Shown piece after piece: positions 24,152 through 55,935 of a stretch of 64,000 bases of DNA; position 1 is the first letter of the stretch, and every line of letters begins with the position of its first letter. The DNA comes from Candidatus Poribacteria bacterium. GTDB lineage: Bacteria; Poribacteria; WGA-4E; PCPOR2b. The translations under genes were made by a program, and so were the position numbers. Location: contig OZ242326.1 in NCBI GenBank assembly GCA_965208325.1, forward strand, positions 2,432,001 through 2,496,000, read 5' to 3'. The notes below the pieces were generated by a model. That model ran no database searches, had not been told where the DNA came from, and saw only the letters and a program-made list of their open reading frames with translations.

Positions 24152-24460
24152 TTAATCATTCTGATTGAGGGTTGCGTACCATTTGGGGTTGGAAATGACT
24201 GCTTTATTTTTCTCCTTGATGTAAAGATGCCATGAAGGATGTCGCCGATGCCATGACGGGTTTCGCAAATCCCACTGTCTGCCCCACCCTTTACACCAAG
24301 CCACGTTGGGTGGGCTATTTTCCGTAATCCACTCATTTGCCAACTTGTGCGCGGTAATGACATCTCTGGCTATAAATGTGTTTTCTTTATAGCACACAGA
24401 TGCCTTGCAGCGGTTATCAAATACCCTAATAGTGTACAATTTTGGACGTTTATGCCTCAT
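24152..24460 (-). CDS. Hypothetical protein
   Basis: 102-aa ORF with GGAG RBS, directly downstream of DUF6602. Confidence 0.4.
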   Translation of the reverse strand: MRHKRPKLYTIRVFDNRCKASVCYKENTFIARDVITAHKLANEWITENSPPNVAWCKGWGRQWDLRNPSWHRRHPSWHLYIKEKNKAVISNPKWYATLNQND

Positions 24461-24483
24461 CTAACATTCTCCATAACTTGCGT

Positions 24484-25377
24484 TTACATACCGGATTTCG
24501 GCTTCTCGATCAAGTGGTTCACCTTACCACAGTTGGCGTATTCCATTAAATTAACCGATCCTACTGTGCAGTGTGCCGCATGCATAAACAGATGTGAGCA
24601 GAAAAACTTGAAATGGGCATAATCATGGTCGTGACCCCAAATCCATTTGTTACGGTTAGCCCCTTTTCTCGCGTGTGAAATCGGAAAATAACAATCGAAA
24701 AACTCACCTTCGGGAAACTCCGTGGTATAGTGCAGTAGGCCATCCTCAAGGCTAAGTATCGAGCTGTGCCTATGTGCATAATCTACAGATTTGTAAATAT
24801 CGTTAAGAGTTGATGGGAAAGTGACGCCGCGCAGCGGGAAGGCGATGCGGTTGCATATTAGAAAAGTAAACACTTGATCAAAGGGTATCTCGTCCTTTCC
24901 ATACTCGGTATTTTGTAAACCATGCCACCGCACAACTGCTGACGCCTCATCGGTTAAGGCGGAACGCATTTCCTTTACTTTGGAGACCCGAATAAGGGCT
25001 TCTGCGAATTGGTCGCGGTTCACGTCAGACTTCACCTCTCCGGCAGCTATCACTGTTTCTACAGGAAAGAACCTCTGGCGGTTCTTCGATTCCAACGGGG
25101 GAGTAAACGATGGGTCGTAAATGACCAGATCAATCTGCCCACTAATTTCTCCTGACGCGTTTACCACAAAGCCTGTATCAATGGCTAATCGTTGTGGTAA
25201 GAACGCTTGAAGAAAATCGCGAACGATTGCTTCTCGATATGTGCCAAATTCCCCCGGATGGCTTACCTTGTTCTGCTTACTATCGTCCTGAAAGAGTACT
25301 TTTGCCCGTTGAGCAAATGCGGAACGGAATATGTCAATTCGCTCTTCAATCAATGCGTCAATGGTGTCATTTGCCAT
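24484..25377 (-). CDS. DUF6602-family protein (PD-(D/E)xK-like, defence-island associated)
   Basis: HPGEFGTYREAIVRDFL..LP...GFVV...SGQIDLVIYD...FFPVETVIAAGEVKS. Confidence 0.75.
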   Translation of the reverse strand: MANDTIDALIEERIDIFRSAFAQRAKVLFQDDSKQNKVSHPGEFGTYREAIVRDFLQAFLPQRLAIDTGFVVNASGEISGQIDLVIYDPSFTPPLESKNRQRFFPVETVIAAGEVKSDVNRDQFAEALIRVSKVKEMRSALTDEASAVVRWHGLQNTEYGKDEIPFDQVFTFLICNRIAFPLRGVTFPSTLNDIYKSVDYAHRHSSILSLEDGLLHYTTEFPEGEFFDCYFPISHARKGANRNKWIWGHDHDYAHFKFFCSHLFMHAAHCTVGSVNLMEYANCGKVNHLIEKPKSGM

Positions 25378-25614
25378 ACCATACCTCTGATTTGATATGC
25401 TCCGGCTATGGAGTCGGTTGCTGATATTCTATCTGCTGCCTTCATAGATGCTTCACCACAATAGCATTTTAGCGCTAGGAAACGTCATCAATCACATATC
25501 CTGTAGGTTGCGTCAATCGATCATCTCAGCGGATAAAACAAGCGACCAATTAACGAGCGCGATAGTTTTCTGCGAAACTCAACCCATCACTGTCCGTGAT
25601 AAACCGCTGCGAAC

Positions 25615-27129
25615 TCATCGCAAATTGCCCAGTTTCAGCCAATCAGACTTACCTCGATCCCACCGCCACGAGGCCAATTCACCTTTATAACCAAATTGGT
25701 TCCGGTTGAATCCTAGCTTCACCCATTCCGTGCTGTCTGTGCTAAAGATACTGGCGACTCCCCCGTTTTCATTGACGCTGAGCCCCGCTATCGAAATCCC
25801 GTCCTTGCCAAACGCAACGACGCGCCCGCCGTGGTCGTCAATACCTAGAACTGACTGCGATTCCCCGTCTTTTCCAAAGGCAACAACTTCGCCGCCGTAT
25901 TCTGTGATCGCTAACCCCGCCTTTGAAAACCCGTGCTTGCCAAAAGCAACGACGCTCCCACCATATTCACCAATGCCTAGCCCCGCCCGCAATTTCCCGC
26001 CCTTGTCAAAGGCATCAACGCGCCCGCCGTATTCTCCAATTCCGATCACCGCTCCCGATTTCCCATCTTTGCCAAAGACCGCAACACCCGTGCCGTGTTC
26101 TGTGCCCCCAAGCATCGCCCCCGATTCCCCGTCTTTTCCAACGGCATCAACGCTCCCGCCGTATTCTGTGATTCCGAGCCCCGCCCGATATTTCCCGTCC
26201 TTGTCAAAGGCAACAACACTCCCGCCGTGGTCATCAACACCGAGCACCGACTGCGATTTCCCGTCTTTGCCGATTGCCGCAACACTCCCGCCGTGGTCAC
26301 GGGTAGCGAGCATCGCCCTCGGTTTCCCGTTCTTGCTTAAGGCAACGACGCGCCCGCCATGTTCATCAACACCGAGCCGCGCCCCCGATTGCCCGTCCTT
26401 GCCTAAGGTTTCAACACTCCCGCCGTGTTCATCAACGCCGAGCATCGCTCCCGATTTCCCGTCCTTGCCTAAGGCAGCAACGACCCCACCGTGCTCTGTG
26501 ATTCTGAGTTCCGCCTTTGCTTTACCGTCCTTGTCAAAGGCACCAACACTCGCGCCGTATTCTGTGATTCCGAGCCCCGCCCGCAATTTCCCGTCCTTGC
26601 CGGCGGCGACAACACTCCCGCCGTGGTCATTAACACCGAAAACCGCTCCCGATTTCCCGTCCTTGCCAAAGGCTTCAAAACTCCCGCCGTATTCTCCGAT
26701 TCGGAGCCCCGCCATCGGCTTCCCGTCCTTGTCAAAGGCACCAACGCTCCCGCCGCGGTCATCAGTACCGAGAACCGCCATCGATTTCCCGTCTTTGCCG
26801 ATTGCGGTGACGCCACCGCCGTACTCTGTGACTATTAACCCCGCCTTCGAAACCCCGTCTTTGCCAACGGCAGCAACACCCCCGCCGTGTTCAAGAACGA
26901 CGAGGTTTATTACAGGAGTGCCCGCTTTATCAAAAACGACCACCTCGCCCCCGTCCTCAGACATCCCCAAGCTAACAACTGTCTTGCCCTCGCCGTCAAC
27001 AATATTTAGCTGTTCACAACTAATCGTCTTTGCACTGTTCATCGTCCGGCTACATCCGCTCAATACCCCAGTGACCGCAATCATGCTTCCAATCACCATA
27101 GTTGCCATTATCTTTCTCGTTACCTTCAT
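25615..27129 (-). CDS. Lipoprotein with ~19 tandem 22-aa Gly-rich beta repeats
   Basis: Lipobox LSGC; unit GGSVxAFGKDG-KxRAxLGIxE(H/Y); AAGGAG RBS. Confidence 0.85.
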   Translation of the reverse strand: MKVTRKIMATMVIGSMIAVTGVLSGCSRTMNSAKTISCEQLNIVDGEGKTVVSLGMSEDGGEVVVFDKAGTPVINLVVLEHGGGVAAVGKDGVSKAGLIVTEYGGGVTAIGKDGKSMAVLGTDDRGGSVGAFDKDGKPMAGLRIGEYGGSFEAFGKDGKSGAVFGVNDHGGSVVAAGKDGKLRAGLGITEYGASVGAFDKDGKAKAELRITEHGGVVAALGKDGKSGAMLGVDEHGGSVETLGKDGQSGARLGVDEHGGRVVALSKNGKPRAMLATRDHGGSVAAIGKDGKSQSVLGVDDHGGSVVAFDKDGKYRAGLGITEYGGSVDAVGKDGESGAMLGGTEHGTGVAVFGKDGKSGAVIGIGEYGGRVDAFDKGGKLRAGLGIGEYGGSVVAFGKHGFSKAGLAITEYGGEVVAFGKDGESQSVLGIDDHGGRVVAFGKDGISIAGLSVNENGGVASIFSTDSTEWVKLGFNRNQFGYKGELASWRWDRGKSDWLKLGNLR

Positions 27130-27158
27130 CGAATGTCTCCTTGTGTTTGTGGTTTGCG

Positions 27159-27404
27159 CTACTTCTGCCGATACCCGTTCTTATCCCACGTGGACACCGC
27201 ACCGTTGCCGTATTCGTTGATGCCGATGGCAACCCGTCCCTTGCCTTTTCCCTCAACAGAGACACTCCCGCCATGCTCATCAACACCAAGCCAAACCTTC
27301 GATGTACCTTCTTTCCCTAACGCGGCGGCGCTGACAAACCCACCGTGTCCATCTACGCCTATTCTTACACCGCGTTGGATTCCGTTCGGACCGAAAAAGA
27401 ACAC
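27159..27404 (-). pseudogene. 5'-truncated member of the same repeat family (constant C-terminus, no signal peptide)
   Basis: Ends GNGAVSTWDKNGYRQK, nearly identical to the end of 28837-29403; in-frame stop upstream at 27486-27488. Confidence 0.65.
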
Positions 27405-27493
27405 ATCGCCGACCGCAAAGATGTAGCTATTGTTCAGGTCGCTCAGCTCACACTCATACAGAGATATGTCGTAGATTTTTTTTGATTATAATT

Positions 27494-28156
27494 TTAGTAT
27501 TTTAGTCGATTACCGTTAATCGTTCTTAACATGCCCTTATCCCAAGTAGACACGATGCCTTCGCCGTCTCGGTTGATGCTCATGATAGCCTTCCCATTGC
27601 TTTTACCCGCAACTGATATCAAACCGCCGTGCTCATTCAAGCCAAGTGCTACCCCTTTTTCTCTATTTTCTCTATCATTACCCAATACGACAATGCCACC
27701 GTTATCATCAGTGACATCGAGTTTCACACGTGAATACCCATTATTGTTACAGACGGCGATATTCCCGCCATGTTCGCCAGTATAGAGCTGCACCTGTGCA
27801 ATATTGTGGTCATGGCCATAGATTTTGACACTCCCACCACGTTCATCAACATCGAGCGCCGCGACCGGGAGCCCATCTTTTCCACTAACCACGACAAATC
27901 CGCCATGTTTGTTCATAGCAAGGTTCACCCGTGACGTTCCGCTGTCATCATAGACTCGGACAATCCCCGAATTTTCTATGCTTGCCAGATGCACCACTGG
28001 TATCGAATCTTTATTAACGACCGTCAACTTAGTACACTCAATCTCCCCAAACTTATCCCGCTGCGCCGTTACCGGCGGCACCAATAACGCCGTCAATAAA
28101 CTCCCGACGACCCCGCCCACAATCCCGCTCATTACCAGATAGTGTTTTGAATTCAT
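27494..28156 (-). CDS. Exported 22-aa-repeat family protein
   Basis: MNSKHYLVMSGIVGGVVGSLLTALLVPPVTAQRDKFGEIECTKLTVV, then degenerate repeats and VSTWDK. Confidence 0.8.
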   Translation of the reverse strand: MNSKHYLVMSGIVGGVVGSLLTALLVPPVTAQRDKFGEIECTKLTVVNKDSIPVVHLASIENSGIVRVYDDSGTSRVNLAMNKHGGFVVVSGKDGLPVAALDVDERGGSVKIYGHDHNIAQVQLYTGEHGGNIAVCNNNGYSRVKLDVTDDNGGIVVLGNDRENREKGVALGLNEHGGLISVAGKSNGKAIMSINRDGEGIVSTWDKGMLRTINGNRLKY

Positions 28157-28372
28157 TGCAATTCCCCCCTTGTGGAAAAACATTCGCTAAAGCCCGGCGC
28201 CTCGCTAGTTTTGACATCGTCTCGCCGCCGTTCGGGCTGTTTGAAATCTCCCTGCGAAATCAAAAAGTCAGTTTAACGCGCCCACGCAAAAATTATACTA
28301 TACAAATGTTTAGTCTGTCCACCGGCTTTTCAAATTTTTTTCGCCATCACTGCATTCGGTGTAGCTTTCGTT
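28157..28372 (-). promoter_or_regulatory. Conserved ~215-bp promoter and 5' leader, copy A (copy B 29404-29618)
   Basis: Two aligned copies; minus-strand TGGACA-N18-TATAAT; AGCCC...GGGCT stem in the leader. Confidence 0.7.
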
Positions 28373-28379
28373 AGTTTTT

Positions 28380-28720
28380 GTAGGTTGGGTTAAGCGTAGC
28401 AAATAAAAGACGCGAAATATGTCGAATGGATATCGGTATTTGACGATGTTTGTAATCTGCCTAGATGTAGCGAACCCAACGTTTTTGGATATCGCGGAGC
28501 GTTTGATTAATCGGAGGCGGTTCGGAAATACGAAAAGCGTTGGGATCAACTGCGCGAATAGTGAAGGATCAATCGACCGAATAGGGAGGGATCAACTGAG
28601 TGGATAGCGAAGGCGGTAGTCTTCGGGTTCTCTGCTCATCGAATTTTGTCCGTCGTTAGTCTTCCGTCGCTGTTCGTTAAATTGTAAATTGTATCGGAAA
28701 ATCCGCTCAACCCAACCTAC
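28380..28720. repeat. REPIN/MITE-like element bounded by inverted GTAGGTTGGGTT/AACCCAACCTAC, with internal 23-bp tandem units
   Basis: Same ends at 24055, 44770, 46140 (+) and 18857, 18989, 21867, 46475, 46570 (inverted). Confidence 0.7.
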
Positions 28721-28799
28721 AAAGGCTAATTAAGATCCTGTTATCCTTAATTGCCGTCAGAAACAGTGCCTGCTGTCCATTTGCCTGCGTCCTGTATTT

Positions 28800-28834
28800 A
28801 CTGACCACTGGCAACTAGCCACTAACCACTGCCC
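28800..28834 (+). repeat. Degenerate heptamer tandem repeat (5 units)
   Basis: ACTGACC ACTGGCA ACTAGCC ACTAACC ACTGCCC. Confidence 0.55.
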
Positions 28835-28836
28835 TT

Positions 28837-29403
28837 CTACTGCCGATAACCGTTCTTATCCCACGTGGACACAGTACCGTTGCCGTATTCGTCTATGCCC
28901 ATGGTAACCAGCGCCTTGCTTTTACCCTTAACAAGTATACTGCCGCCGTACTTATAGATACCGAGTCCCACAAGCGATTTCTCATCTTTACCCCAAACGT
29001 CTATTTTGCCGCCGTACTCACCGATATAGAGAAACACAGACGATTCATGATCTTTGCCCACAACGTTCATATTGCCGCCGTACTCACCGATAGAGAGAAA
29101 CGCAGACGATTTCTCATCTTTACCCACAACGTCTATACGGCCGCCGTACTCACGGCTATGGAGTAACACACCCAATTTCCCATCTTTATCCAAAACAATT
29201 ATACGGCCGCCATCTTCGTCCGCAAGAAGTGCCACCCTTCCCCCCTCGCTGCCGTCTTTACTAACGACCGTCAACTTAGTACACTCAATCTCCCCAAACT
29301 TATCCCGCTGCGCCGTTACCGGCGACACCAACAACGCCGTCAACAAACTCCCGATGACCCCGCCAACAATTCCGCTTATAACCAAATAGTGTTTCGTATT
29401 CAT
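28837..29403 (-). CDS. Exported 22-aa-repeat family protein
   Basis: N-terminus nearly identical to 27494-28156; AGGAGG RBS; ends GNGTVSTWDKNGYRQ. Confidence 0.8.
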   Translation of the reverse strand: MNTKHYLVISGIVGGVIGSLLTALLVSPVTAQRDKFGEIECTKLTVVSKDGSEGGRVALLADEDGGRIIVLDKDGKLGVLLHSREYGGRIDVVGKDEKSSAFLSIGEYGGNMNVVGKDHESSVFLYIGEYGGKIDVWGKDEKSLVGLGIYKYGGSILVKGKSKALVTMGIDEYGNGTVSTWDKNGYRQ

Positions 29404-29618
29404 GGCAAATCCTCCTGTGTGGAAAAACATCCGCTAGAGCCCGGCCGCCCGTATGTTTTGACATTGTCGCGCCGCCGTTGGGGCTGTTTGAAATCTCCTA
29501 CCGAAATGAAAAAGTCAGATCATCCCGCCCACGCAAAATTATACTATACACACGTTTAGTCTGTCCACCGAATTTTCAATTTTTTTCGGCACCACTGAAT
29601 TCGGTGTAGCTTTCGTAA
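29404..29618 (-). promoter_or_regulatory. Conserved promoter and leader, copy B
   Basis: Aligns with 28157-28372. Confidence 0.7.
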
Positions 29619-29798
29619 GTTGGCCAAAGTCTACGGTGCGAAAACCAACCCTCCTTACCGCAAATTAAAAAACGCCCGGTGTAAATATTTTGTGCGTAAT
29701 GTAAACATATTTTGCTCAAAATTAAAAAAAAGTACCTACATGGTAACTTCATACACTACTAAATTGTACGGTGTCTTACATTTTGAATAAAAACACCC

Positions 29799-29827
29799 TT
29801 GACAGATCTCTTTTCATCAAGTATTAT
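29799..29827 (+). promoter_or_regulatory. Sigma70-type promoter
   Basis: TTGACA-N17-TATTAT. Confidence 0.65.
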
Positions 29828-29892
29828 AACATATAGTAGCTCACGCGCCGTGTAATCGCGCCGCGATTTACAACTAATTATAAAACAATTAG

Positions 29893-29951
29893 AAAAGGCA
29901 AACCCGCGAGGCAGCCTTATCAAGTGATGCTGAGGGTTTGCCTTTTTTTTT
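29893..29951 (+). terminator. Intrinsic terminator/attenuator upstream of the terminase genes
   Basis: AAAAGGCAAACCC...GGGTTTGCCTTTT stem followed by a T9 run. Confidence 0.7.
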
Positions 29952-30134
29952 GAAATGCGCATCGGCATTTGAACGGCATGTGCTAATCCATGTATCTAGG
30001 TGGAGAAAAAATAATCCGTTGTAATTTGTAATTCGCTAAACCGCTCTACGACTAGCATTCGGCGATCCCGAAATTACAACGTTGTAAGGCGTTGTAAATT
30101 TAATCATAACAAACCGCCTCGCTGAGGTCATAAA

Positions 30135-43788: not shown

Positions 43789-43879
43789 CCCGCAATACAT
43801 CGTCAAACTCATCGCCAAAGTAATCACCGTCAGCCTCGAAACCGTCGACATTGTGGAAAATTTGCCGGAATTGGGATAA
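43781..43879 (+). repeat. 96-bp direct repeat, copy 2: orphan R-M C-terminus with its own stop codon
   Basis: Encodes GDDPQYIVKLIAKVITVSLETVDIVENLPELG*. Confidence 0.95.
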
Positions 43880-43904
43880 AAATGGATATGGAGGAAATTC
43901 AACG

Positions 43905-44750
43905 ATGTCAAATTCTATCGTTAACTTGGGAAAGCTAGCAAAGCCTTTTGACACCCTGGTCAAGAAAATTGCGAAAGGCATCGGTGGCACGGTTGCTCCT
44001 TGGCAGATCAAAAGAGTTGCTAGGGCAGAAGCTGAGGCTGCAAGAATTAATGCGCAATCTGAGATTGAAGTGACCGACTTACATCAAAGAGCCGCGCAGC
44101 GTCGAATTGAAGAAGATGCACGTCAACAAAAGAATATGGAAGATATTATCACTAAAGCAGCACCACATTTGAAAGAAGATGCAAAACCCGACGCCATGGC
44201 TGACGACTGGATCTCCAACTTCTTTGATAAATCTCGAATCGTATCCGACAGTGAAATGCAGAGTTTGTGGTCGCGCGTACTGGCAGGTGAAGCGAACACT
44301 CCTGGTACCTACTCCAAGCGTACCGTTAATCTTATTGCGGAGTTTGACAGGCGCGATGCTGAACTTTTCACTAAGCTTTGTGGATTTGGCTGGATTATAG
44401 GAAATGTAATACCTTTGGTGTTTGATGTGCAGGCGGAAATTTACACTAAACAAGGAATAACCTTCGATAGCGTGAGTCATCTTGAAAGTTTTGGACTTGT
44501 TCAATCTGCAGGAGTTACTGGTTTCAGCCGAGTCAATTTGCGCAAAAGACTTATTGTGTACTACTATAGTAAGCCATTGCTACTGGAATTCCCCAAGGAT
44601 ACTGGTAACGAGCTAAAGATTGGAAAGATACGTCTCACTAAAATCGGACAGGAACTTGCGCCAATATGCGGAAGTAAGCCAGTAGAAGGTTTCTACGAAT
44701 ACGTCAAGAACCGGTGGAAGCAATTCATTCCCAAGGGTGAAAAAACATAA
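43905..44750 (+). CDS. DUF2806-family protein
   Basis: GGAGG RBS; RQQKNMEDI, DDWISNFFDKSRIVSDSEMQSLWSRVLAGEANTPGTYSKRT. Confidence 0.8.
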   Translation: MSNSIVNLGKLAKPFDTLVKKIAKGIGGTVAPWQIKRVARAEAEAARINAQSEIEVTDLHQRAAQRRIEEDARQQKNMEDIITKAAPHLKEDAKPDAMADDWISNFFDKSRIVSDSEMQSLWSRVLAGEANTPGTYSKRTVNLIAEFDRRDAELFTKLCGFGWIIGNVIPLVFDVQAEIYTKQGITFDSVSHLESFGLVQSAGVTGFSRVNLRKRLIVYYYSKPLLLEFPKDTGNELKIGKIRLTKIGQELAPICGSKPVEGFYEYVKNRWKQFIPKGEKT

Positions 44751-45106
44751 TAGCAGTAGTAAGTCCTTAGTAGGTTGGGCAGAGTGAACACATTCGTAGC
44801 GCTTGGAAAGACTGCACAAGGTAGCAGGTGAAAACCACCGTTTTCTTTCTATAGCCCATTAGCGAAACCCAACGCTTTTGGAATTACCTTCAACTTGCGT
44901 AACGCATTGTTACGTTGGCTATGCGAGATAAAAATAATTCCTCTAGCAAACGACGAATAGGCGATTGGACACCGTAGGTGCGAATTGGTCTCTGCCAACT
45001 CATTTACAGGAGTTCAGAAGCTGAAATTGCAGCCACAGACGTATCGGTAGACTTAACAGAAGGTGACTTGCACCTCGCGTAGCAAGACATAGAAAAGGAG
45101 AAACTC

Positions 45107-46054
45107 ATGCGCCAGATGACATGGATAGGCAGACCCGTAAACGAAAACTCTGACCACTTCGAAAAAATACGCGGTCTTATTCCGACCTTCAGCAGAGAGG
45201 GTTTTAAAATCGATGGCCAAGAAAACGAGCATCTCGACATGATTGTCAAGCTGCCTCGATACCCAAACGATACAAAAATTCCAGTGGCAACGGTATCGAA
45301 ATCCTACTCGCTCATTCAACACCGTGAAATACTCAACGAAATAGAAAGCGCGTTGAAAACTATGGGTTACCCAATCGAAAATTTTGAAACAGACCTACAA
45401 TTGACAATCTACGGAGAACGCATGTGGTTGAGGATTACTTTCCAAGAGGAGCACTCGTTTGATCCCGGAGATGGGTACCCGCTAACACTACAGCTTCACG
45501 TTATTAACTCGGTTGACGGGAGCACTCCACTAACCTACGAAATGTGCTGGTTCAGACTCATCTGTGAAAACGGTCTTATGCAGTCCAACAGCGCAAGTGC
45601 CCGAATAAGGCACACTGCCTCACTAGATAAAACAAAATTCGTTGAACTCCTCGATTCCAGCATTAACGAGATGCGCGCTGAAGCCGATGCATACATGACT
45701 TGGTACGAAATACCGTTAAACCCGGGCACACAGATATTGGAAGACTGGATTGACTCGACGGTGAATAATAAGTGGGGCTTCCGGCTCGCAGCGCGTAGCT
45801 ATCACATAATTAAAACCGGAATGGACGGTAGAGTAGACAAAGTCGACGCGACTTCGGCGGAAAAACGTAAAGCCCCGCACACAATCAAAGTTTCGTCCGA
45901 ACAATCGGTGCCGGGGGCAATACCTGCTGAGAATGTCTATGATGTTGCAAACGCACTATCCTGGATTGCGTCACACCGCAATTCACTCCAAACTCGATAC
46001 AATTACATGAAGGCGATGCCTGAGCTACTTGCCGATCTTAACCAGAGACTCTAA
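45107..46054 (+). CDS. DUF932-family phage/plasmid-associated protein
   Basis: VSKSYSLIQH, GERM, INSVDGST, FRLICENGL; AAGGAG RBS. Confidence 0.75.
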   Translation: MRQMTWIGRPVNENSDHFEKIRGLIPTFSREGFKIDGQENEHLDMIVKLPRYPNDTKIPVATVSKSYSLIQHREILNEIESALKTMGYPIENFETDLQLTIYGERMWLRITFQEEHSFDPGDGYPLTLQLHVINSVDGSTPLTYEMCWFRLICENGLMQSNSASARIRHTASLDKTKFVELLDSSINEMRAEADAYMTWYEIPLNPGTQILEDWIDSTVNNKWGFRLAARSYHIIKTGMDGRVDKVDATSAEKRKAPHTIKVSSEQSVPGAIPAENVYDVANALSWIASHRNSLQTRYNYMKAMPELLADLNQRL

Positions 46055-46579: not shown

Positions 46580-46660
46580 TAGAGCTGTCCAGTTCACATA
46601 ACGCAAAAACGAAATTACAATATGAATTCATGTCAACCCACGATTGATCGACACACGCCA

Positions 46661-48694
46661 ATGAAAACCCAAGCATTTCGTTACACGCTTATCCTATTGA
46701 GCGGACTTACCTTGTCTACATTCGCCCCGGTTGCTGACGCTCAAATTCAAGATTTCTCAATGTTGAATTTACCTGACGGAGCGATTGTCCGCTTGGGCAA
46801 AGGCGGGGTGAGTTTCGGCGACCGAGGTATCGCGTTTTCGCCCGATGGAAGCCGCCTCGCCGTAGCAACCAGCATCGGCATTTGGCTTTACGATGCCGAG
46901 ACGCTTAGTGAAATTGCACTGCTAGCCGGCCACAACGAAAAGGTGTCCACCGTGGCGTTCTCGCCTGACGGCAAAAAACTGGCTTCAGGGTCGGGCTCCC
47001 AATTGCCCGGAACGCTAAAACTTTGGGATGTCGAAAGCGGACAAAATATCGTTGCATTCCACGTAGAGAGAAGTTCAGTTGTTTCTGCGGCGTTCTCGCC
47101 TGACGGGGCAAAACTTGCCTGGGCGGGACGACTTTGGGATGTGGCAACCGGGCAACAACTCGATATAATCCAAGATAAGGGGTTGTTCAAGCTCGAGTTT
47201 TCGTCCGATGGTGTGATGTTAGCGGGGACAAGCATAAGCGCCGTTAACGGGAAGCGGGCGGGTATTGTAAAGTTATACGATATCGAAACCGGACAACTCC
47301 TTAAAACGCTAAATCAGGGTACAGAACGGGTCTCATCAATCGCCTTTTCACCTGATGGACATCTGTTAGCTTCAGGCTCGGCAGTCGACGGTACAGTCAA
47401 TCTGTGGGATGTAGATTCTGGGCAAAATACCGCCGTATTTACAGTGAAACCAAATGATGGTGTCGCAATGTGTGTTGCGTTCTCACCCGACGGCGCAAAA
47501 CTCGCCGTGGCGTCAGCGGCGGGAATCACCCTGTTGGAAGTATCCACGGGGCAGCATCTCTACACACGGCAACACGTCGAAATCGGCAAACTAGAAATTT
47601 CAGTGGACGTTTTCTCTGTTGCGTTTTCGCCCGACGGCACGAAACTCGCCTCAGCGTCATGGGATGGCGTCAAGCTGTGGGATGCGGCGGCCGGGCAAAA
47701 TATCGCCGCCTTACCCGGCCATGCGCGGGCGGTGAATGCTGTCGCGTTCGCACCTGACGGGTTGACGCTCGCGTCAAATTCGATAAGCGGCGTCCAAGTG
47801 TGGGAGGTTGCCGCCGGACAGCATATCGCCACGCTGGCAGGACCTCCGAATTTTGCCGCCTCCTTTGCGTATTCGCCAGACGGCACAAGACTCGCCGCGG
47901 GGTCAGCCGATGCAAGGAACGCCGAGCATACAGTTAAAATCTGGGACGTAGATACGGGGAAAAATACGTATACCCTGCAAGGGCACTCTGACTTAGTGAC
48001 CGCGGTCGCGTACTCGCAAGACGGAACGCTGCTTGCCGCAGGGTCAAAAGATAGAACTATCAACGTGTGGGATGTCAAAACAGGGCAAAGCGCCGCCAGA
48101 CTACAAGGGCATGAGAGCTCAATCAACGCTGTCGCGTTTTCGCCCGATGGAACGAAACTGGCTTCCGGCGCGGACGATACGTCAATTCGGTTGTGGGAGA
48201 TTCCGAATGGCAAAACACTGCATACACTAGGCGGGGTAAATAGCCCCCAAACCCCGGCAAAAGTGCTGCCCGCGCCGCGCCGAGGAGAGGACATCAACGA
48301 AGTTCAGATGGACAGTGACGGTGATGTTGAACCCGAGATTATCAGGGGTTCTGTCCGATCTGTCGCATTTTCGCCGGACGGGACGAAACTCGCCTCTGCG
48401 TCGATGGATGGCGTCAGACTGTGGCATGTAGGGAGGGGGCAGCTTCTCGGGGCGCTTACGGACGGGGAAGCATCTCCGGGTTTCTCCGTTGCATTTTCTC
48501 CGGATGGCGCAAAACTCGCTTCAGGATCCTGGGATGACACGGCAAAGCTGTGGGATGTTTCCACGCAAAAACATATCGCCGCATTTCGAGGGCATACCGG
48601 CAACGTCTGGACTGTGGCGTTTTCGCCCGACGGCACAAAACTGGCTTCAGGATCAGATGATGGAACGGTGCTGCTGTGGAATGCACCGGAGTAA
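46661..48694 (+). CDS. Secreted WD40-repeat beta-propeller protein
   Basis: Signal peptide; about 14 VAFSPDGxKLASGSxDxTxxLWD repeats; LPDGAIVRLGKG leader. Confidence 0.92.
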   Translation: MKTQAFRYTLILLSGLTLSTFAPVADAQIQDFSMLNLPDGAIVRLGKGGVSFGDRGIAFSPDGSRLAVATSIGIWLYDAETLSEIALLAGHNEKVSTVAFSPDGKKLASGSGSQLPGTLKLWDVESGQNIVAFHVERSSVVSAAFSPDGAKLAWAGRLWDVATGQQLDIIQDKGLFKLEFSSDGVMLAGTSISAVNGKRAGIVKLYDIETGQLLKTLNQGTERVSSIAFSPDGHLLASGSAVDGTVNLWDVDSGQNTAVFTVKPNDGVAMCVAFSPDGAKLAVASAAGITLLEVSTGQHLYTRQHVEIGKLEISVDVFSVAFSPDGTKLASASWDGVKLWDAAAGQNIAALPGHARAVNAVAFAPDGLTLASNSISGVQVWEVAAGQHIATLAGPPNFAASFAYSPDGTRLAAGSADARNAEHTVKIWDVDTGKNTYTLQGHSDLVTAVAYSQDGTLLAAGSKDRTINVWDVKTGQSAARLQGHESSINAVAFSPDGTKLASGADDTSIRLWEIPNGKTLHTLGGVNSPQTPAKVLPAPRRGEDINEVQMDSDGDVEPEIIRGSVRSVAFSPDGTKLASASMDGVRLWHVGRGQLLGALTDGEASPGFSVAFSPDGAKLASGSWDDTAKLWDVSTQKHIAAFRGHTGNVWTVAFSPDGTKLASGSDDGTVLLWNAPE

Positions 48695-48955: not shown

Positions 48956-50260
48956 ATGTTAAAAATTTTTGAAGCCCATACCGAAGAAGCGCAAGCCTTC
49001 ATCAATCGGTTAAACCTGCGCGGACGACTCGACGATGAAGTAATTTTGAAAACGGTACGCCGCATATTACAAGATGTTCGTAAAAATGGGGACGCCGCCG
49101 TAATCAAGTATACACGAAGGTTCGATGCACCGAGAATATCCGCAAAAGAGCTGCGGGTAAAAGCAAAAGAATTCAACGACGCACAGTCGCATGTCGATCC
49201 GGAATTCATTGATGCGGTCAGGCTCGCCCGGCAGAATATCGAAAGATTTCATCGGAAGCAGTTACGAAATTCATGGTTCACCGCCGAAGAAAACGGTGTC
49301 CTTTTAGGGCATATGATTCGCCCATTGAGGCGTGTCGGCGTATGTGTACCTTCGGTAAGTCAGCTATTGGTTTCGTCGCTCATTATGAACGTGGTTCCGG
49401 CAAAGGTTGCCGGCGTTGAAGAGATTGCCGTATTCATGGGCCCCATGCGAAATCGAAAGATTAATCCGCACATGCTTGTTGCCGCGGCAGAATGCGGCGT
49501 TCAGGAGGTTTACAAGTGCGGCGGCGCCCAAGCTGTCGCTGCAATGGCTTACGGAACGGAATCTTTGCCAAAAGTGGACAAGATTGTCGGGCCGGGAAAC
49601 TCGTTTGTCCAACTCGCCAAGAAAGAGGTCTACGGTATGGTCGACATTGACAAATTGGCGGGGCCGAGTGAAGTCCTCGTTATCGCCGACCAGAGCGCTG
49701 AACCGGCTTTCATCGCAGCAGATTTAATCTCTCAGGCAGAACACAGTGAAGATAGCTCCGCGATTCTTGTGACGCCGTCAAGAACACTCGCAGAACAGGT
49801 TCGAAAAGAGGTTGAATTGCAGACGAAAGCACTGCCGCGCCAGTCTGAACTTACAAGCGCGTTTGAGAACCACAGCGCCGCGCTGGTCGTCCCCGATCTG
49901 GCGGAAGCAATCAATCTGACAAATGCAATCGCTCCTGAACACGTTGAGTTGGAAGTGGAACGCCCATTCGAGTGGATTGGTGAAATTCGCAATGCGGGCG
50001 CAATTTTGGTGGGGCCTTACACACCGGAATCCGTTGGCGATTATATCGCAGGACCCAATCACATTCTTCCGACAGGGGGTGCGGCGCGATACGCATCACC
50101 GTTGAACGTCGACGATTTTCTTAAGAAGACCAGCGTCATCTCTTATACCGAGTCGGCTCTAAAAAAGGTGACCCCCGCCGTGGTCAAACTGGCGCAGGTG
50201 GAAGGGTTGGACGGACATGCAGCCGCGATGACAACCCGGTTTGATAGAAATCAGGAATAA
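48956..50260 (+). CDS. hisD: Histidinol dehydrogenase
   Basis: GGAQAVAAMAYGT, DKIVGPGN, AGPSEV, DLISQAEH, APEH, GDYIAGPNHILPTGG. Confidence 0.96.
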   Translation: MLKIFEAHTEEAQAFINRLNLRGRLDDEVILKTVRRILQDVRKNGDAAVIKYTRRFDAPRISAKELRVKAKEFNDAQSHVDPEFIDAVRLARQNIERFHRKQLRNSWFTAEENGVLLGHMIRPLRRVGVCVPSVSQLLVSSLIMNVVPAKVAGVEEIAVFMGPMRNRKINPHMLVAAAECGVQEVYKCGGAQAVAAMAYGTESLPKVDKIVGPGNSFVQLAKKEVYGMVDIDKLAGPSEVLVIADQSAEPAFIAADLISQAEHSEDSSAILVTPSRTLAEQVRKEVELQTKALPRQSELTSAFENHSAALVVPDLAEAINLTNAIAPEHVELEVERPFEWIGEIRNAGAILVGPYTPESVGDYIAGPNHILPTGGAARYASPLNVDDFLKKTSVISYTESALKKVTPAVVKLAQVEGLDGHAAAMTTRFDRNQE

Positions 50261-50334
50261 GTAAATCTTGCAATCACCAGCGATGGTGTGACCTCTGCAT
50301 TTTCGCGGACGCGGTTTGCACAGCGCCGTTTTTG

Positions 50335-51558
50335 CTATTCCACGATTGCCGTCACGACCCCAATGCCAAGCTTCACTCCCATCTTCTTGAGGTCAAACCT
50401 CGCACCTACGGATAATGCCATAGGGGTGTCAAGCGTGATTTTTACTGTCGTGTATTCACCGGGGTTAATAACAGCAACGTCCGGCGGCAAGCGTAGATGT
50501 CCGGTAATGTCGATAGTCCAGAGATGGATGTCCGGTTTATCATTTTCTACAAGCGGGATGTGAACGCCGCATTCCTCTTGAGTCATGACATAAACCGCAG
50601 CTTCAAAAACAGTATGCGACTTCATGCTCTTCGGATCGGATACAACCTGCCCGGGCGAAAGCCAGCCCGGTTCCGAATCAACCTGAATGACCTCTTGGTT
50701 TTCAACCGATTGATCGGTCTGTCCATTGCGCGGCGAAAGGGAAAGTTCTGCATGGGAACGCATGGCTACACAACGCGTTTTGATGAGATTTCCCTTGCCG
50801 ACGATATGTACTGAATGGCCCACTGCAAGTCTGCCTTGAAAAATCTCTCCATGAAGTGTTGACATACCGGTTTTCGGATCATCGGTCACTTCTCGAATCG
50901 GAAAAATCAGCGGCAGATCTGAGGTGTTTATCGGTTGCGGAATGCAACGGTTCAGTGCAAAGATAAGGTCCACAATTGGTTTCCAGTCACCGGAACTCGG
51001 ATTATTCCCGTTATATCTTAAAGCTCTCTCGGCATCTCCAATGATTATCGGGGATCTGGCTTCTACATAGCCATAAGCGGTTAGCGTTTCGCGAATCTCC
51101 ATTTGACAGATTTCGATTAGCTCCGGGTCTTTGAGAAGCTCAGCTTTGTTTAGAAACGCAATCACCGCCGGTATTCGGGTTTGGCTTGCAAGGCGAATCT
51201 GCGATTGTGTTTCAGTCGTCACGCCGTCAATCGCACTCACAACTAGAATCGCTCCTCCAACTTTCGGTGAACCGCTTATCAGCATCTTGACGTTATCCGC
51301 GTGGCTGGTTGCGTCGATGTGCGTGTAATGCCTGCCGCTTGTCTCATAGTCAACTGCTTTATAACTAACGCCTAACCGCCCCCCGATTGAGTGGTGAATC
51401 GGTTGTTGTGCATCCAGATCAGGCGCCAGAGATTGTGTCGAGCCAACCTTTGATACCACGTTTATGGCAGCAGCGGTCAGGGTTGTTTTGCCGTGACCCG
51501 CGCCCCCAAGTGTACAAATTGTCGATACTTGATGCCGGTGGTGCTTTTTTGTCTCCAT
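50335..51558 (-). CDS. Highly divergent EF-Tu paralogue (all three domains present)
   Basis: GHGKTTLTAA, YETSGRHYTHID, GAILVVSAIDG, FLNK, GQVV, HTVFEAAVYV, GIGVV are colinear with EF-Tu; G2-G5 motifs altered. Confidence 0.85.
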   Translation of the reverse strand: METKKHHRHQVSTICTLGGAGHGKTTLTAAAINVVSKVGSTQSLAPDLDAQQPIHHSIGGRLGVSYKAVDYETSGRHYTHIDATSHADNVKMLISGSPKVGGAILVVSAIDGVTTETQSQIRLASQTRIPAVIAFLNKAELLKDPELIEICQMEIRETLTAYGYVEARSPIIIGDAERALRYNGNNPSSGDWKPIVDLIFALNRCIPQPINTSDLPLIFPIREVTDDPKTGMSTLHGEIFQGRLAVGHSVHIVGKGNLIKTRCVAMRSHAELSLSPRNGQTDQSVENQEVIQVDSEPGWLSPGQVVSDPKSMKSHTVFEAAVYVMTQEECGVHIPLVENDKPDIHLWTIDITGHLRLPPDVAVINPGEYTTVKITLDTPMALSVGARFDLKKMGVKLGIGVVTAIVE

Positions 51559-51808
51559 ATGGCTATCCTCTCATAACAAACCGTGAAACCAATATAGATG
51601 ACGTGCGGTTGGATAGTTAATTGGCATGTTCCTTCGCGGAACATGTGTTACCGGTGATTCTTCGTATCTCTCTCATTTGGTTGCCTTATTTTTGTCCTTA
51701 GGTAGTTCTCTCTACGGTTAGCAATGATGGTCTGTAGTTTACCAGAGATAACAGTGGACATCAATCACAATCAACCGTTTGCAGGTATTCCGGGCGGACG
51801 GATTTTTA

Positions 51809-51837
51809 TTGACATTGCCCAAAAATATTGTTATTAT
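51809..51837 (+). promoter_or_regulatory. Sigma70-type promoter
   Basis: TTGACA-N17-TATTAT upstream of the S55 peptidase. Confidence 0.6.
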
Positions 51838-51956
51838 TCGCAAGTTGTGTCTTGGCAACTACGATTCAAATGGGATTTGAATTTTCCATCAAATGAATGA
51901 TTTAGAACGGCCTTATTCGATTCTACGAATTGCAGATTGAATATTGAGGTGATAGT

Positions 51957-53810
51957 TTGAGGAAGTTTTTTTGTTGGCTGATAATAGGTGCATTCTGCTC
52001 GATTGTAATGCACGCGGCAGCGGAAATTAAGTGGGACGCGGCGAAATTTATGCCCTTGTCAGAAATTAAACCGGGCATGAAAGGAGAAGCATACACCGTT
52101 TTTTCGGGAACAACTGTCGAAAGTTTTCCCTTTGAAGTTGTGACCATAGAATACAATTTTTTGCCGCAGTGGCACGTGATATGGGTTGAAGCGAGTGGAA
52201 ATAATTACGAGAAGACCGGTGCGGCCGGCGGCATGAGCGGCAGCCCGGGTTATATCAACGGACGACTAATCGGCGCCCTTTCCCTCGGTTACTTTTACCA
52301 GCGGGAAGATTCAAACCTCGTCGGCTTTACGCCCATTGAATCTATGATAGAGGTAACGCGGCGCGGTATGCAACCGAATATGAGCTATTCCGGAGGCGCA
52401 CGTTTTGACGTTGGCATACATACCGCCTGGAAGCCGTTCGAGCCATTGCCTTCAGTTTCCAATGAGTTCTTTAATACTAAGGAGTTTGTGGAGACTCGCC
52501 CCATTCCGACGGTAGAAAGCGGTTCACCTCTGCTTCAGATTCCGATGGCGTTGTCTACGATGAATCCTCAAGTATTAGGATTCCTTAAACCGATGTTTGA
52601 CAAACATGGACTGATGCCAATGCGTGGAACGGCTGGAGGAGCGCCAGTTGATAGCGCACCCATTGAGCCCGGCCAGATAGTCGGTATGGAATTTTCACGG
52701 GGAGATTTCACAGCTTTTGGTTACGGTACAATGACCTACATCGAAGGAAATCAGGTAATCGGTTTCGGTCATTCAATGTTTGGAGAAGGTCATGTAAATC
52801 TCCCGCTTTCTGGAGGGTATGTCCATTTTATTCTACCGAGTATTACTCGATCCTTCAAGGTCGCTTCCCCAACTAAACCGATAGGCACATTGGTGCAGGA
52901 TCGCCAAACAGCCATCGCGGGTTTAACCGGAGCACATCCCAGTTTTTTGCCGGTAAGCGCCAGCATTGAAACGACAGACGGGCAAACCCATCCAGTCCGG
53001 TATGAGGTGCTGCGCCATCGCGACTTATCAGCGGCACTCGCCATGACTGGAGTTTGGAATAGCATCAGTGCGCTTGAGATTGACAGCGGCGATCATACCA
53101 TCAACATAAATACGACAATTGCGCTCCAAGATCAGGCCAATCTCTCATCTCAAGAGATTGTGCGCAGCAATGTTTATTCATCCAGTTTTTCACCAGGGTT
53201 TTGGGCGTTTCAGGCTTTTTCCCCGTTAGCAAGTCTAATTGGTAATCAATATGAAAAGATTGTGGTTAAAGGCGTTACCGTTGACATCAAAATTGAGGAT
53301 AAGCGCAAAACGGCGGTTATTGAAGCAGTTCGGATTAATAAAAACCGGTATCGCCCGGGTGAGCAAATTGAGGTGATGGTGACCCTTCGCCCTTATCTTG
53401 AAGCGCCAATTATGCAAGTGGGGCACATCACAATTCCGGATGACGCCCCTGAAGGATTATCTACACTCCTTATTGCAAGCGCGGTGTCCCATGAAGCCTG
53501 GCAGCGAACCCGCGCGCCGCTGAACTACTACCCAAAAAATATCAATCAACTCATCCAACTATTGCAACACAACCCTAGCAATAATAATATTATACTTGAG
53601 ATTTTTATCCCGAAAATTGGCATGACTGTTCAAGGGCGGGAATTCCCGGAACTCCCTTTGTCTATGCTCTCGGTCATGAGTTCGCCCAGCCAGTCTGGTG
53701 AAGGAGGCTATACGCGCGGGACTACTTTGCATATTGAAGATGTCCCGACGAAGTACGTTATCTCTGGTGGACAATTTGTACGATTCACCGTAGACCGAAA
53801 CGCCCCATAG
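51957..53810 (+). CDS. SpoIVB-like peptidase S55 domain secreted protein
   Basis: IKPGMKG..TVFSGT, GMSGSPGYINGRLIGA, GTMTY..VIGFGHSM. Confidence 0.85.
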   Translation: MRKFFCWLIIGAFCSIVMHAAAEIKWDAAKFMPLSEIKPGMKGEAYTVFSGTTVESFPFEVVTIEYNFLPQWHVIWVEASGNNYEKTGAAGGMSGSPGYINGRLIGALSLGYFYQREDSNLVGFTPIESMIEVTRRGMQPNMSYSGGARFDVGIHTAWKPFEPLPSVSNEFFNTKEFVETRPIPTVESGSPLLQIPMALSTMNPQVLGFLKPMFDKHGLMPMRGTAGGAPVDSAPIEPGQIVGMEFSRGDFTAFGYGTMTYIEGNQVIGFGHSMFGEGHVNLPLSGGYVHFILPSITRSFKVASPTKPIGTLVQDRQTAIAGLTGAHPSFLPVSASIETTDGQTHPVRYEVLRHRDLSAALAMTGVWNSISALEIDSGDHTININTTIALQDQANLSSQEIVRSNVYSSSFSPGFWAFQAFSPLASLIGNQYEKIVVKGVTVDIKIEDKRKTAVIEAVRINKNRYRPGEQIEVMVTLRPYLEAPIMQVGHITIPDDAPEGLSTLLIASAVSHEAWQRTRAPLNYYPKNINQLIQLLQHNPSNNNIILEIFIPKIGMTVQGREFPELPLSMLSVMSSPSQSGEGGYTRGTTLHIEDVPTKYVISGGQFVRFTVDRNAP

Positions 53811-53856
53811 TACATTGCCAATCTTCAATTAGCCATTAAGAGGAGGAAGTTTCTTC

Positions 53857-55935
53857 ATGAGGCATTATCGTGTTCTTTGTCTGTTGGGTTTCATAGCCAT
53901 ACTATTGGTTGCCGCAATCGGATCGGCGTTTGCAGTGAAAACGTCCGTTTGGGAACAATACCGCCATCGTGATTTTGAAGCCGGTACCGGTAAAGATGTA
54001 TCGATTTCAAGCAAAAACGAAGTCGTTTTGTCCCCTAAACTGGACGCTGTTTTCACAGATATAGAGCAAATATACATTTGGTGTCTAGCCGAGGATTCTA
54101 AAGGAAACATCTACGCGGGTACTGGCAATCAGGGGAAAATTTATAAGATTAATCCCGAAGGTCAATCATCGCTCTTTTACGACTCGCCAGAGGTCGCAAT
54201 CTTGAGTCTTGCAGTAGACACAAATGATAACATTTATGCTGGAACCGCCCCTGATGGCTTAATATATAAAATTTCGCAAGAAGGTGTTCCACCAAATACG
54301 CTTCTTAGTTCCGAGGAAAAATTCGTTTTTGCGCTGACGTTTGATGATGCCGGAAATCTTTATGCAGCGACGGGAACAAACGGCAAGATTTACAAAATCA
54401 CGCCTGAGGGTGAAAACAGCGTCCTGTTTGATTCTGAAGAGAGTTCCATTATGTGCCTGCTGTACCACCAAGGCGCTCTGTACGCTGGAAGTGAGGGTAA
54501 AGGTGTCATTTACCGAATAACGCCCGATGGAGCGGTTTCAGTTGTATTTCAGACGGGACAAAAAGAGGTCCGCACGCTGGTTGTAAATACCCAAGGCACC
54601 ATTTACGCCGGTACCGTCACAACTTCTCCACCGAAGCCGGGCGCACCGCCAAGCAGCCCTCCTCCGCCAGGCGCGCCGCCCGAAGAAAAGAAGTCACAGC
54701 TTTATCAGATTAATTCTGACGGCGTGGTCTCCGTGATTTGGGCGGCACCAGCCCCATTGATTCTGTCAATGGTTGTCGAAGCGGATAATCAACTCTTGGT
54801 TGGAACCGGGGACGAAGGAAAGATTTTTCGAGTCAATACGGAAGGGGACTTTACGTTATTGGGAAAATGCGATGCAAGTCAGATTCTTGCGATGCACCAA
54901 GGAAAAGATAGCAAACTTACCTTAGGAACAGGCAACCCCGGTAAATTCTTTGAACTGAAAGTCGATCGCAATTCATCGGGAACGCTTGAATCTGTAGCTC
55001 ATGATACGCGACTCATTTCGCGGTGGGGGAAATTATCGTGGGAAGGACTTTCGGCGGAAGGTACTTCAATATCGTTCGCTACGCGTACTGGCAATACCGG
55101 AAAGCCGGATAACACTTGGAGCAATTGGTCAAGCGAACTGACAATACCGGAAGGTTCTCAGATTACAAGTCCAACAGCACGATACATCCAATGGCGTGCA
55201 ACACTTACGACGAGCGCTCCGTCAACGACTCCAATCCTAAAAAGAGTAGCTGTTGCATCTGTCCAATCAAATGTCGAACCTCGATTTACTTCAGTTGAAA
55301 TTAATCGCGGTGATAAACCCAAAGGCTCCGGCAGACCCCCTGATGTAAGTCCACCGGGAGAAAACAGAGCCCAAAGCCAAGCTGAAAGCAACAATGGCAA
55401 ACGGCGGGCGTCATGGAAAGTAGAAGACGCGAACAATGATACCCTGCAGTTCACCATTTACTACAAAAGCATTGATGAGACTAATTGGAAACTTCTCAAA
55501 AAGAAACTGGATCAGCCCAACTACACTTGGGATACGACATCAATGCCCGATGGACGCTACACCCTGAAAATTCAAGCGACGGACAAGCTAAGCAACCCGC
55601 CTAACTTAGCAAAAATTTCTGAGAAAATCAGCGATCCCTTTGACATTGATAATACACAGCCAGCAGTAGGCAATATCGCTGCGACCGCCAATGGAGATGA
55701 TACATTTCAAATCGTTTGTTCGGTTGAGGACGCGATGAGTTATATTCAAAAGGCGGTTTATAAAATCGACAACGATGAACATTGGAAGGTCATGTTTCCG
55801 GCGGATGGAATCTTTGATTCCAAACGGGAAGAACTTATGATTCAAACGGAGACACTGCCGGCCGGTGAACACACCATAACAATTCAGGCTACTGATGCAG
55901 AGGGAAACACGTCTGTTGGGCGGGGGAAGTTCTGA
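53857..55935 (+). CDS. Secreted beta-propeller + FnIII/Ig protein, partner of the S55 peptidase
   Basis: Repeated GNIYAGTGxxGKIYKI blades; RTGNT..PD..WSNWS..SPTARYIQWRA; WDTTSMPDGRY. Confidence 0.8.
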   Translation: MRHYRVLCLLGFIAILLVAAIGSAFAVKTSVWEQYRHRDFEAGTGKDVSISSKNEVVLSPKLDAVFTDIEQIYIWCLAEDSKGNIYAGTGNQGKIYKINPEGQSSLFYDSPEVAILSLAVDTNDNIYAGTAPDGLIYKISQEGVPPNTLLSSEEKFVFALTFDDAGNLYAATGTNGKIYKITPEGENSVLFDSEESSIMCLLYHQGALYAGSEGKGVIYRITPDGAVSVVFQTGQKEVRTLVVNTQGTIYAGTVTTSPPKPGAPPSSPPPPGAPPEEKKSQLYQINSDGVVSVIWAAPAPLILSMVVEADNQLLVGTGDEGKIFRVNTEGDFTLLGKCDASQILAMHQGKDSKLTLGTGNPGKFFELKVDRNSSGTLESVAHDTRLISRWGKLSWEGLSAEGTSISFATRTGNTGKPDNTWSNWSSELTIPEGSQITSPTARYIQWRATLTTSAPSTTPILKRVAVASVQSNVEPRFTSVEINRGDKPKGSGRPPDVSPPGENRAQSQAESNNGKRRASWKVEDANNDTLQFTIYYKSIDETNWKLLKKKLDQPNYTWDTTSMPDGRYTLKIQATDKLSNPPNLAKISEKISDPFDIDNTQPAVGNIAATANGDDTFQIVCSVEDAMSYIQKAVYKIDNDEHWKVMFPADGIFDSKREELMIQTETLPAGEHTITIQATDAEGNTSVGRGKF

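Follow-up and report, generated by a model that had tools for sequence, protein, structure and literature searches.

The window analysed here, 64,000 nucleotides of a Candidatus Poribacteria genome (contig OZ242326.1, forward-strand positions 2,432,001 to 2,496,000), contains a gene for a full-length paralogue of elongation factor Tu (EF-Tu), designated P0001. This gene is probably a duplicated tuf that has turned into a switch-dead pseudo-GTPase: its product belongs to an orthologue group specific to Poribacteria, retains the three-domain fold of EF-Tu and would act as a binder of fixed shape. EF-Tu ranks among the best-studied and most highly conserved of all proteins, and duplicated bacterial tuf genes are normally near-identical. 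In this case a second, rewired EF-Tu is kept phylum-wide under strong selection. The coding sequence of P0001 (407 aa) occupies positions 50335..51558 on the minus strand, stop codon included, as an uninterrupted open reading frame (ORF) of 407 codons, and a Shine-Dalgarno-like GAGGA at 51566..51570 on the same strand was read from the sequence 8-12 nt ahead of the start codon (ATG at 51558). All further features of the gene are likewise given on the minus strand.

An initial inspection of the DNA alone, hereafter the sequence-only reading, had described a protein colinear with EF-Tu domains I-III and free of frameshifts. This description is borne out by the stop-free frame and by an end-to-end alignment to EF-Tu, in which NCBIfam PRK00049 aligns residues 6-407 to model positions 6-396 of 396. 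The best solved relative is EF-Tu (PDB 6gfu, 246 bits over residues 13-407), and Pfam assigns GTP_EFTU with 82.5 bits (gathering score 26.5; residues 11-181) and GTP_EFTU_D3 with 56.6 bits (gathering score 27; residues 311-405). The G domain and domain III profiles, with about 400 columns aligned to EF-Tu by Foldseek, place the protein in the translational GTPase/EF1-family three-domain fold. Based on the Pfam matches, the alignments and the secondary structure of an AlphaFold2 (AF2) model, it consists of a G-domain-like domain I (approximately aa 1-205; 50944..51558), a domain II-like barrel (approximately aa 206-310; 50629..50943) and domain III (approximately aa 311-407; 50338..50628). The Pfam D2 model does not match the paralogue, and the barrel is nevertheless seen in the AF2 model. 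The paralogue is clearly separated from the canonical factor, as it scores 246.1 bits against the EF-Tu equivalog TIGR00485 (curated cut-off 522.4), where the genome's own tuf product reaches 728 bits. SelB (TIGR00475, 44.6 bits, cut-off 242.25) and CysN (TIGR02034, 21.3 bits, cut-off 336.1) likewise stay below their thresholds. In the six genomes where both genes were compared, the paralogue and the tuf of the same genome are 32-34% identical overall, with domain II the most divergent part (19-27%).

Alignment to the genome's own tuf shows the replacements that the sequence-only reading had listed in G1, switch I, G3, G4, G5 and the aminoacyl pocket. GHVDHGKT has become GGAGHGKT, RGITI has become GRLGV, DCPGH has become DATSH, NKAD has become NKAE and SAL has become DAE, and the pocket segments IEDIF, VEMF and GDNIG read IREVT, MRSH and VENQE. 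The intact G1-G5 series of a canonical EF-Tu is thus absent (GGAGHGKT, GRLGV, DATSH, NKAE, GDAE). One correction concerns G1, where His19, Val20 and Asp21 are lost but the P-loop consensus GxxxxGKT is itself intact.

Residue counts over 120 family members show which of these changes are general. The P-loop (GGAGHGKT, aa 18-25; 51484..51507) keeps the Walker A consensus GxxxxGK[ST] in 118 members, the remaining two having a Lys to Arg exchange and an N-terminal truncation, respectively. Asp21 is kept in none of the 120 and is replaced by Gly (81), Glu (25), Gln (11) or Arg (2). The G2 threonine (Thr61) is found in a single member. In G3/switch II (DATSH, aa 82-86; 51301..51315) the aspartate equivalent to Asp80 is kept in 119 members, the glycine of DxxG (Gly83) in two and the equivalent of His84, present in the window's protein, in 100. 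The G4 remnant NKAE (aa 137-140; 51139..51150) contains the asparagine found in all 120 (Asn135); the lysine is kept in 47 and the aspartate (Asp138) in only nine, with Glu in 55, Gly in 36, Asn in 12 and Ser in eight. In the G5 remnant GDAE (aa 174-177; 51028..51039), Ser173 is kept in no member and is replaced by a nearly invariant Asp (118 of 120). For the aminoacyl/A76 pocket, which in EF-Tu-tRNA structures comprises His66, Glu215, Asp216, Phe218, Glu259, Arg262 and Asn273, the picture is the same: His66, Glu215, Asp216, Phe218 and Arg262 are each kept in 0/120, Arg262 being deleted in 73, and Asn273 is retained in seven and deleted in 75.

Read from these alignments, the lost residues are those of the translational-GTPase hallmark (Asp21), of the coupling between Mg/gamma-phosphate and the switches (G2 Thr, DxxG Gly), of guanine recognition (NKxD Asp, G5 Ser) and of the hold on the aminoacyl-A76 end, counted here as His66, Glu215/Asp216/Phe218 and the Glu259-Arg262 and Asn273 loops. 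According to the available text of PMC9825190, Asp21 is a conserved signature shared by every elongation factor; on the ribosome it sits in a pocket of the 23S rRNA (at the sarcin-ricin loop, SRL), and its substitution lowers ribosome-dependent GTPase activity. The family also has constraints of its own, in the form of invariant residues that are missing from canonical EF-Tu. G5 is followed by a Y-x-G...W insert, domain II contains GKG and E..W, and domain III, where 38 of 97 positions are at least 90% conserved, contains THIPL..ND.P.I.LW and KKM (within the conserved motif KKMG..IG.G). Domain II of the window's protein also contains a clade-specific insert (aa 273-283; 50710..50742) that is missing from family members of 386 aa.

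The genome, assembled as one contig of 4.71 Mb (95.6% complete), contains a single canonical tuf. It is located between fusA and rpsJ-rplC in the str operon, 2.15 Mb from the paralogue, and in five of five further Poribacteria genomes a single canonical tuf (>720 bits) is likewise accompanied by a single paralogue. A protein database search returned 406 relatives; among the matches listed, 119 others are 48-89% identical to P0001 and 363-488 aa long. Of 207 candidate stretches located in species-representative genomes, 132 were relatives, and the best 80 of these 132 comprise 77 titled Poribacteria and three titled 'uncultured bacterium'. When 176 genomes from the phylum were searched with a profile, 151 had a match at E<=1e-140, all of them in the window's order (families f1-f4). 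With the weaker scores followed up, the paralogue was tallied in 158 of the 176, always as a single copy; these include a gene split over two contig ends (G041), very divergent copies in four genomes of genera g10/g11, and a less derived form in the one genome each of families f6 and f7. Three of the 18 genomes lacking it belong to the order (G035; G067, 85% complete; G120, 86% complete). The other families, f5 and f8-f11, lack it in 15 of 15 genomes, nine of which show a tuf-level match only and six no match at E<=1e-60. The family is specific to Poribacteria and is found mainly in one order. The sequence-only reading had asked for a canonical tuf elsewhere in the genome, which is present, and had named a lack of orthologues as a sign of decay; orthologues occur across the phylum.

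Selection on the family was estimated by the Nei-Gojobori method from 81 coding sequences (the window and 80 loci), restricted to those pairs (646 of 3240) that share 80% or more of their amino acids and have a synonymous divergence (dS) of 0.05-2. The ratio of nonsynonymous to synonymous rates (dN/dS, omega) has a median of 0.087 and a range of 0.050-0.231 over these pairs, which are not independent of one another; the window's gene gives 0.23 against locus L009 and 0.18 against L010. The reading frame is intact at every locus examined, with no internal stops. A value near 1 had been named as the sign of decay, and the median points instead to purifying selection. Across the six genomes in which both were compared, identity is 50-90% for pairs of paralogues and 81-94% for pairs of tuf genes, the paralogue evolving approximately three times faster. 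This comparison and the dN/dS values together describe a fast-evolving yet clearly constrained gene, and G-motif loss combined with purifying selection fits the concept of a pseudo-GTPase, a protein with a GTPase fold but without residues for binding and/or hydrolysis.

Relatives of the window's protein retain different amounts of the GTPase centre. In a library of representatives at 50% identity, the family forms one cluster at 738 bits, followed by the outlier P0121 at 370 bits and by canonical-type proteins from 278 bits downwards. In the outer forms P0121, G012 (f6) and G013 (f7), Asp21, the G2 Thr and the DxxG Gly are already lost (DCV[ND]H), and NKID, GSA and the domain II motif 'PFLM..[DE]DVF' are still present. 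Within the window's order, genus g12 has kept the P-loop, and its genome G068 even has NKAD. In all four genomes of g10/g11 that were examined, a three-residue deletion has removed GKT (VVG[ED][KR]S[NY]-DLC) and switch II contains an insert, with the family motifs of domains II and III remaining. This series is consistent with quick maximum-likelihood trees, one of them calculated with posterior mean site frequencies (PMSF). P0121 groups with the 27 family rows in one tree (support of 100 in the Shimodaira-Hasegawa-like approximate likelihood ratio test, SH-aLRT), and the PMSF tree sets apart the canonical side with a support of 99 and the core family with one of 100, with the outer forms between them and the P-loop-less forms nested within the core family (support 86, branch length 1.26). 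These living relatives represent successive stages in the loss of a GTPase centre, down to deletion of the P-loop, and provide a natural series from a switch protein to a pseudo-enzyme.

Proteins of a similar kind were also noted in metagenomes. Only 11 of 64 metagenome representatives (380-425 aa, best matches to the family profile, within P0122-P0269) have all of GH[VI]DHGKT, D.PGH and NK.D, and about half, by eye, lack the DxxG Gly (DYPSH, DCPSH, DCSSH, DCPTH). Switch-dead EF-Tu-like proteins may thus recur outside Poribacteria; the sample is biased towards divergent sequences.

An AF2 model of the paralogue built on a 123-row alignment has a predicted local distance difference test score (pLDDT) of 90.8 and a predicted template modelling score (pTM) of 0.88, with low confidence only at residues 1-6 and in the domain II insert at residues 273-283 (pLDDT <50). 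It replaced a poor model from a 27-row alignment of the family only (pLDDT 70.9, pTM 0.52). The top Foldseek ranks are held by open, GDP-type EF-Tu structures (6gfu, 1d8t, 6mij, 1efc, 1tui) with template modelling scores (TMq) of 0.83-0.88, compared with 0.74 for a chain of the EF-Tu-EF-Ts complex and 0.47 for the closed form 1ha3. The resemblance of the model to the open shape of EF-Tu-GDP is only suggestive.

Because this selected, single-copy paralogue lacks the switch, base-recognition and aminoacyl-pocket residues, and because the P-loop is dispensable in one lineage, the data argue for a pseudo-GTPase that neither cycles nor carries aminoacyl-tRNA. We infer from the sequences that P0001 runs no GTP/GDP cycle and delivers no aminoacyl-tRNA and, since the residues for GTP switching and for carriage of charged tRNA are gone, that it is probably a binding protein of fixed shape. 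Its selected function would be binding through the open, GDP-like shape, with nucleotide as a structural cofactor at most. The neofunctionalised pseudo-GTPase named in the sequence-only reading fits the canonical tuf copy, the phylum-wide orthologues, the omega of 0.087 and the family-wide loss of switch and pocket residues. The roles suggested with it (a decoy for EF-Tu-targeting toxins or antibiotics, a regulator of EF-Ts or the ribosome, or a binder of atypical RNAs) found no support, there being no defence match, no conserved neighbours and no RNA motif.

Several observations weigh against parts of this interpretation. As the P-loop Lys/Thr and the G3 Asp are kept in 118-119 of 120 members, some phosphate ligand still seems to matter in most lineages, and 'nucleotide-independent' may be the wrong description for the protein encoded in the window. 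Little weight attaches to the open-state model, as its alignment included canonical EF-Tus, and the quick trees do not place the duplication relative to the Poribacteria tuf. The conservation of helix D, considered below as a docking site, is modest, with three strongly conserved identical positions compared with five in helix A. No neighbour is conserved family-wide, the neighbourhoods differing between clades. Nor was a Balon-type partner identified in the genome, where PF10116 (Host_attach), PF03465 (eRF1_3) and PF18854 (baeRF_family10) had no match; other baeRF families were not tried.

As to what a fixed EF-Tu shape would bind, we tentatively suggest that the paralogue docks on the partners of off-state EF-Tu, the ribosomal stalk protein bL12 and/or EF-Ts, together with a new partner of domain III, and modulates translation at low abundance instead of acting as a carrier. 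Docking would take place via helix D, which is partly retained in the family ('kD.ELi.IC..E.re.L' compared with the canonical 'dd.ElleLvElE.reLL') and which is where EF-Ts and L7/L12 make contact (PMC9825190, as far as its available text goes), and the new partner would be bound through the re-patterned domain III. A predicted complex of the paralogue with two copies of the genome's 199-aa EF-Ts scored 0.14 against a mark of 0.32, in a run made without controls, and weighs neither for nor against such docking. The only EF-Ts of the genome is a short form of about 199 aa (G000:C1:2068828-2069397, L108), and this protein is 75-94% identical across the listed Poribacteria matches, diverging much more slowly than the EF-Tu paralogue. 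A more specific version would be a dedicated EF-Tu-GDP mimic frozen in the off-state, which docks on the stalk/factor-binding site or on EF-Ts without a nucleotide cycle and damps or parks translation in slow-growing sponge symbionts, its relatives recording an order of loss from switch residues through base and tRNA pockets to, finally, the P-loop. We regard this mimic and this order of loss, taken jointly, as unlikely; if true, the mimic would amount to a hibernation-type mechanism without a Balon-type partner.

Little less plausible than docking on translation partners is recruitment of the protein as a binding module outside translation, for example as a scaffold or as a host- or compartment-related factor of sponge symbionts, through surfaces newly conserved in the family (GKG and E..W of domain II, THIPL..ND.P.I.LW and KKM of domain III, and the Y-x-G...W insert behind G5). 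Such a role would suit the family-specific invariants missing from canonical EF-Tu, the high conservation of domain III, the confinement to one phylum and mainly one order, and the average codon usage of the gene (53rd percentile among 3215 ORFs; tuf and fusA lie at about the 98th percentile, but both sit in the reference set). However, the sequence as read has no secretion or membrane signal and indicates no particular partner, no fused domains were found (no longer or fused forms at E<=1e-80, which is weak evidence), and the gene lacks conserved neighbours.

The surroundings of the gene are clade-specific, and the hypothesis of a conserved operon was rejected because the neighbours differ between clades. 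In the window, hisD (48956-50260, plus strand) is convergent with the paralogue gene and a gene for a 617-aa protein is divergent on the other side. With no tRNA gene found in the 64-kb window and tuf 2.15 Mb away, these neighbours agree with the earlier placement outside str and tRNA operons. The 617-aa protein, whose similarity to SpoIVB/S55 peptidases is sub-threshold (22.6 compared with 25 bits), is followed by a 692-aa beta-propeller/Ig-like protein (51957-55935, plus strand for the pair), and conservation of the pair beside the paralogue is confined to the clade of the window (window, L009, L010), in which the paralogue is flanked by the S55-like gene and hisD. In 18 loci (L014, L020-L033, L035, L036, L038), a co-directional run directly downstream of the paralogue comprises an M20 peptidase, an isochorismatase-like protein, a 468-aa protein without Pfam match, a metallophosphoesterase, CYTH and CHAD. 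This run is operon-like (43-bp gap in L027) and is not conserved in other clades. A convergent His_biosynth (hisA/hisF-type) gene is found in 43 loci (within L041-L088, cluster c2). A histidine-biosynthesis gene, hisD or His_biosynth, is thus convergent on the paralogue in two distant clades, possibly as a remnant of ancestral synteny. No Rfam elements were found at E<=1 in 50100-52100, and a scan for promoters and terminators at the locus stayed near chance expectation. Among the sequencing runs listed as containing the locus are four of DNA type, all from one study, and none of RNA. The family is acidic, with a median isoelectric point (pI) of 5.29, and the idea of a basic RNA-binding protein was rejected on this ground.

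A decoy or sensor for EF-Tu-targeting toxins, phage proteins or antibiotics, made insensitive for example by the missing Asp21, is improbable. Many toxins use EF-Tu surfaces, and the PDB matches of the paralogue include EF-Tu with Tse6 (4zv4) and with CdiA/CdiI (7vmc). The toxin Tre-Tu, as described in the available text of PMC9825190, ADP-ribosylates Asp21, missing from all 120 members, and docks on helix D. However, none of the three members searched against the PADLOC-DB 2.0 defence models (P0001, P0064 and P0121) had a match at E<=0.01, the paralogue has no conserved neighbour with a role in toxicity, immunity or defence, and its steady vertical inheritance with an omega of about 0.09 is unlike that of arms-race genes. 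The codon usage suggests an ordinary rather than tuf-like abundance and is therefore a poor fit to a stoichiometric decoy.

Still less credible is a specialised carrier that remains nucleotide-dependent, perhaps with altered base specificity, and serves an unusual tRNA or tRNA-like RNA, by analogy with SelB, nematode mtEF-Tu2 and the archaeal SelB-like protein aSelBL. The retained P-loop and G3 Asp would suit it, as would the Glu at the NKxD Asp position in 55 of 120 members, NxxE being the motif of the ATP-preferring YchF. A precedent also exists in aSelBL, which is reported to have kept tRNA binding although its G domain is degraded (PMC3037878, in its available text). Such a carrier is nonetheless difficult to reconcile with an aminoacyl/A76 pocket that is replaced or deleted in every member, an unconstrained G4 position (E 55, G 36, N 12, D 9, S 8), a His84 that is not invariant, a sub-lineage wholly without P-loop, the lack of a tRNA or Rfam element nearby and the acidic median pI. 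Finally, a decaying duplicate without function, for which only the approximately threefold faster evolution compared with tuf would speak, has a negligible probability and is refuted by the median omega of 0.087 and the frames free of internal stops, along with retention in 158 of 176 genomes and the many invariant family-specific residues.

Further observations were made elsewhere in the window. A 690-aa protein encoded at 46622-48694 (plus strand) consists almost entirely of WD40 repeats behind a hydrophobic N-terminus; eukaryote-like repeat proteins such as WD40 proteins are typical of sponge symbionts. Beside it, adjacent genes for DUF2806 (299 aa) and DUF932 (315 aa) proteins occupy 43851-46054 (plus strand), and as such genes occur in mobile elements, they may mark an inserted element. 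Relative to the remainder of the window, the stretch 24001-30000 has a strongly negative GC skew (-0.12 to -0.30) and an elevated GC content (0.54 at 26-28 kb).

Searches of the literature on Poribacteria EF-Tu, EF-Tu pseudo-GTPases, EF-Tu paralogues and homologues, and translational GTPase subfamilies returned no description of this family, and in the available portion of a sponge proteome preprint EF-Tu is mentioned only generically. Placement in an already described subfamily, which the sequence-only reading had listed among the refuting outcomes, was accordingly not found in the literature searched. The family points to an undescribed function in uncultivated sponge symbionts. Compared with canonical EF-Tu (TIGR00485; open GDP state, PDB 1EFC, 1TUI, 6MIJ), the paralogue is alike in architecture, length, fold, P-loop GxxxxGKT and G3 Asp, and differs in the loss of Asp21, of the G2 Thr and DxxG Gly in the switches, of the NKxD Asp and G5 Ser for guanine recognition and of the aminoacyl pocket, in its location outside the str operon and in its approximately threefold faster evolution. 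The 2015 survey of translational GTPases, in its available text, recognises just one EF-Tu-like subfamily that stands clearly apart from EF-Tu, namely actEF-Tu (Atkinson 2015, PMC4342817). Like the Poribacteria family, actEF-Tu, of the Streptomyces Tuf3 type, derives from tuf as a second gene, is not subject to gene conversion and makes up a subfamily of its own; however, its members are described there as condition-specific translation factors, whereas the Poribacteria proteins lack the catalytic and tRNA-binding residues, a distinction drawn from the published description. The archaeal aSelBL (Atkinson, Hauryliuk & Tenson 2011, PMC3037878) is likewise a widely retained paralogue in the EF1 family whose GTPase domain is severely disrupted. 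It is derived from SelB and is reported, in the part of that paper available, to keep the patterns of ribosome and aminoacyl-tRNA binding, whereas the family described here is bacterial, derived from EF-Tu and has lost the aminoacyl pocket.

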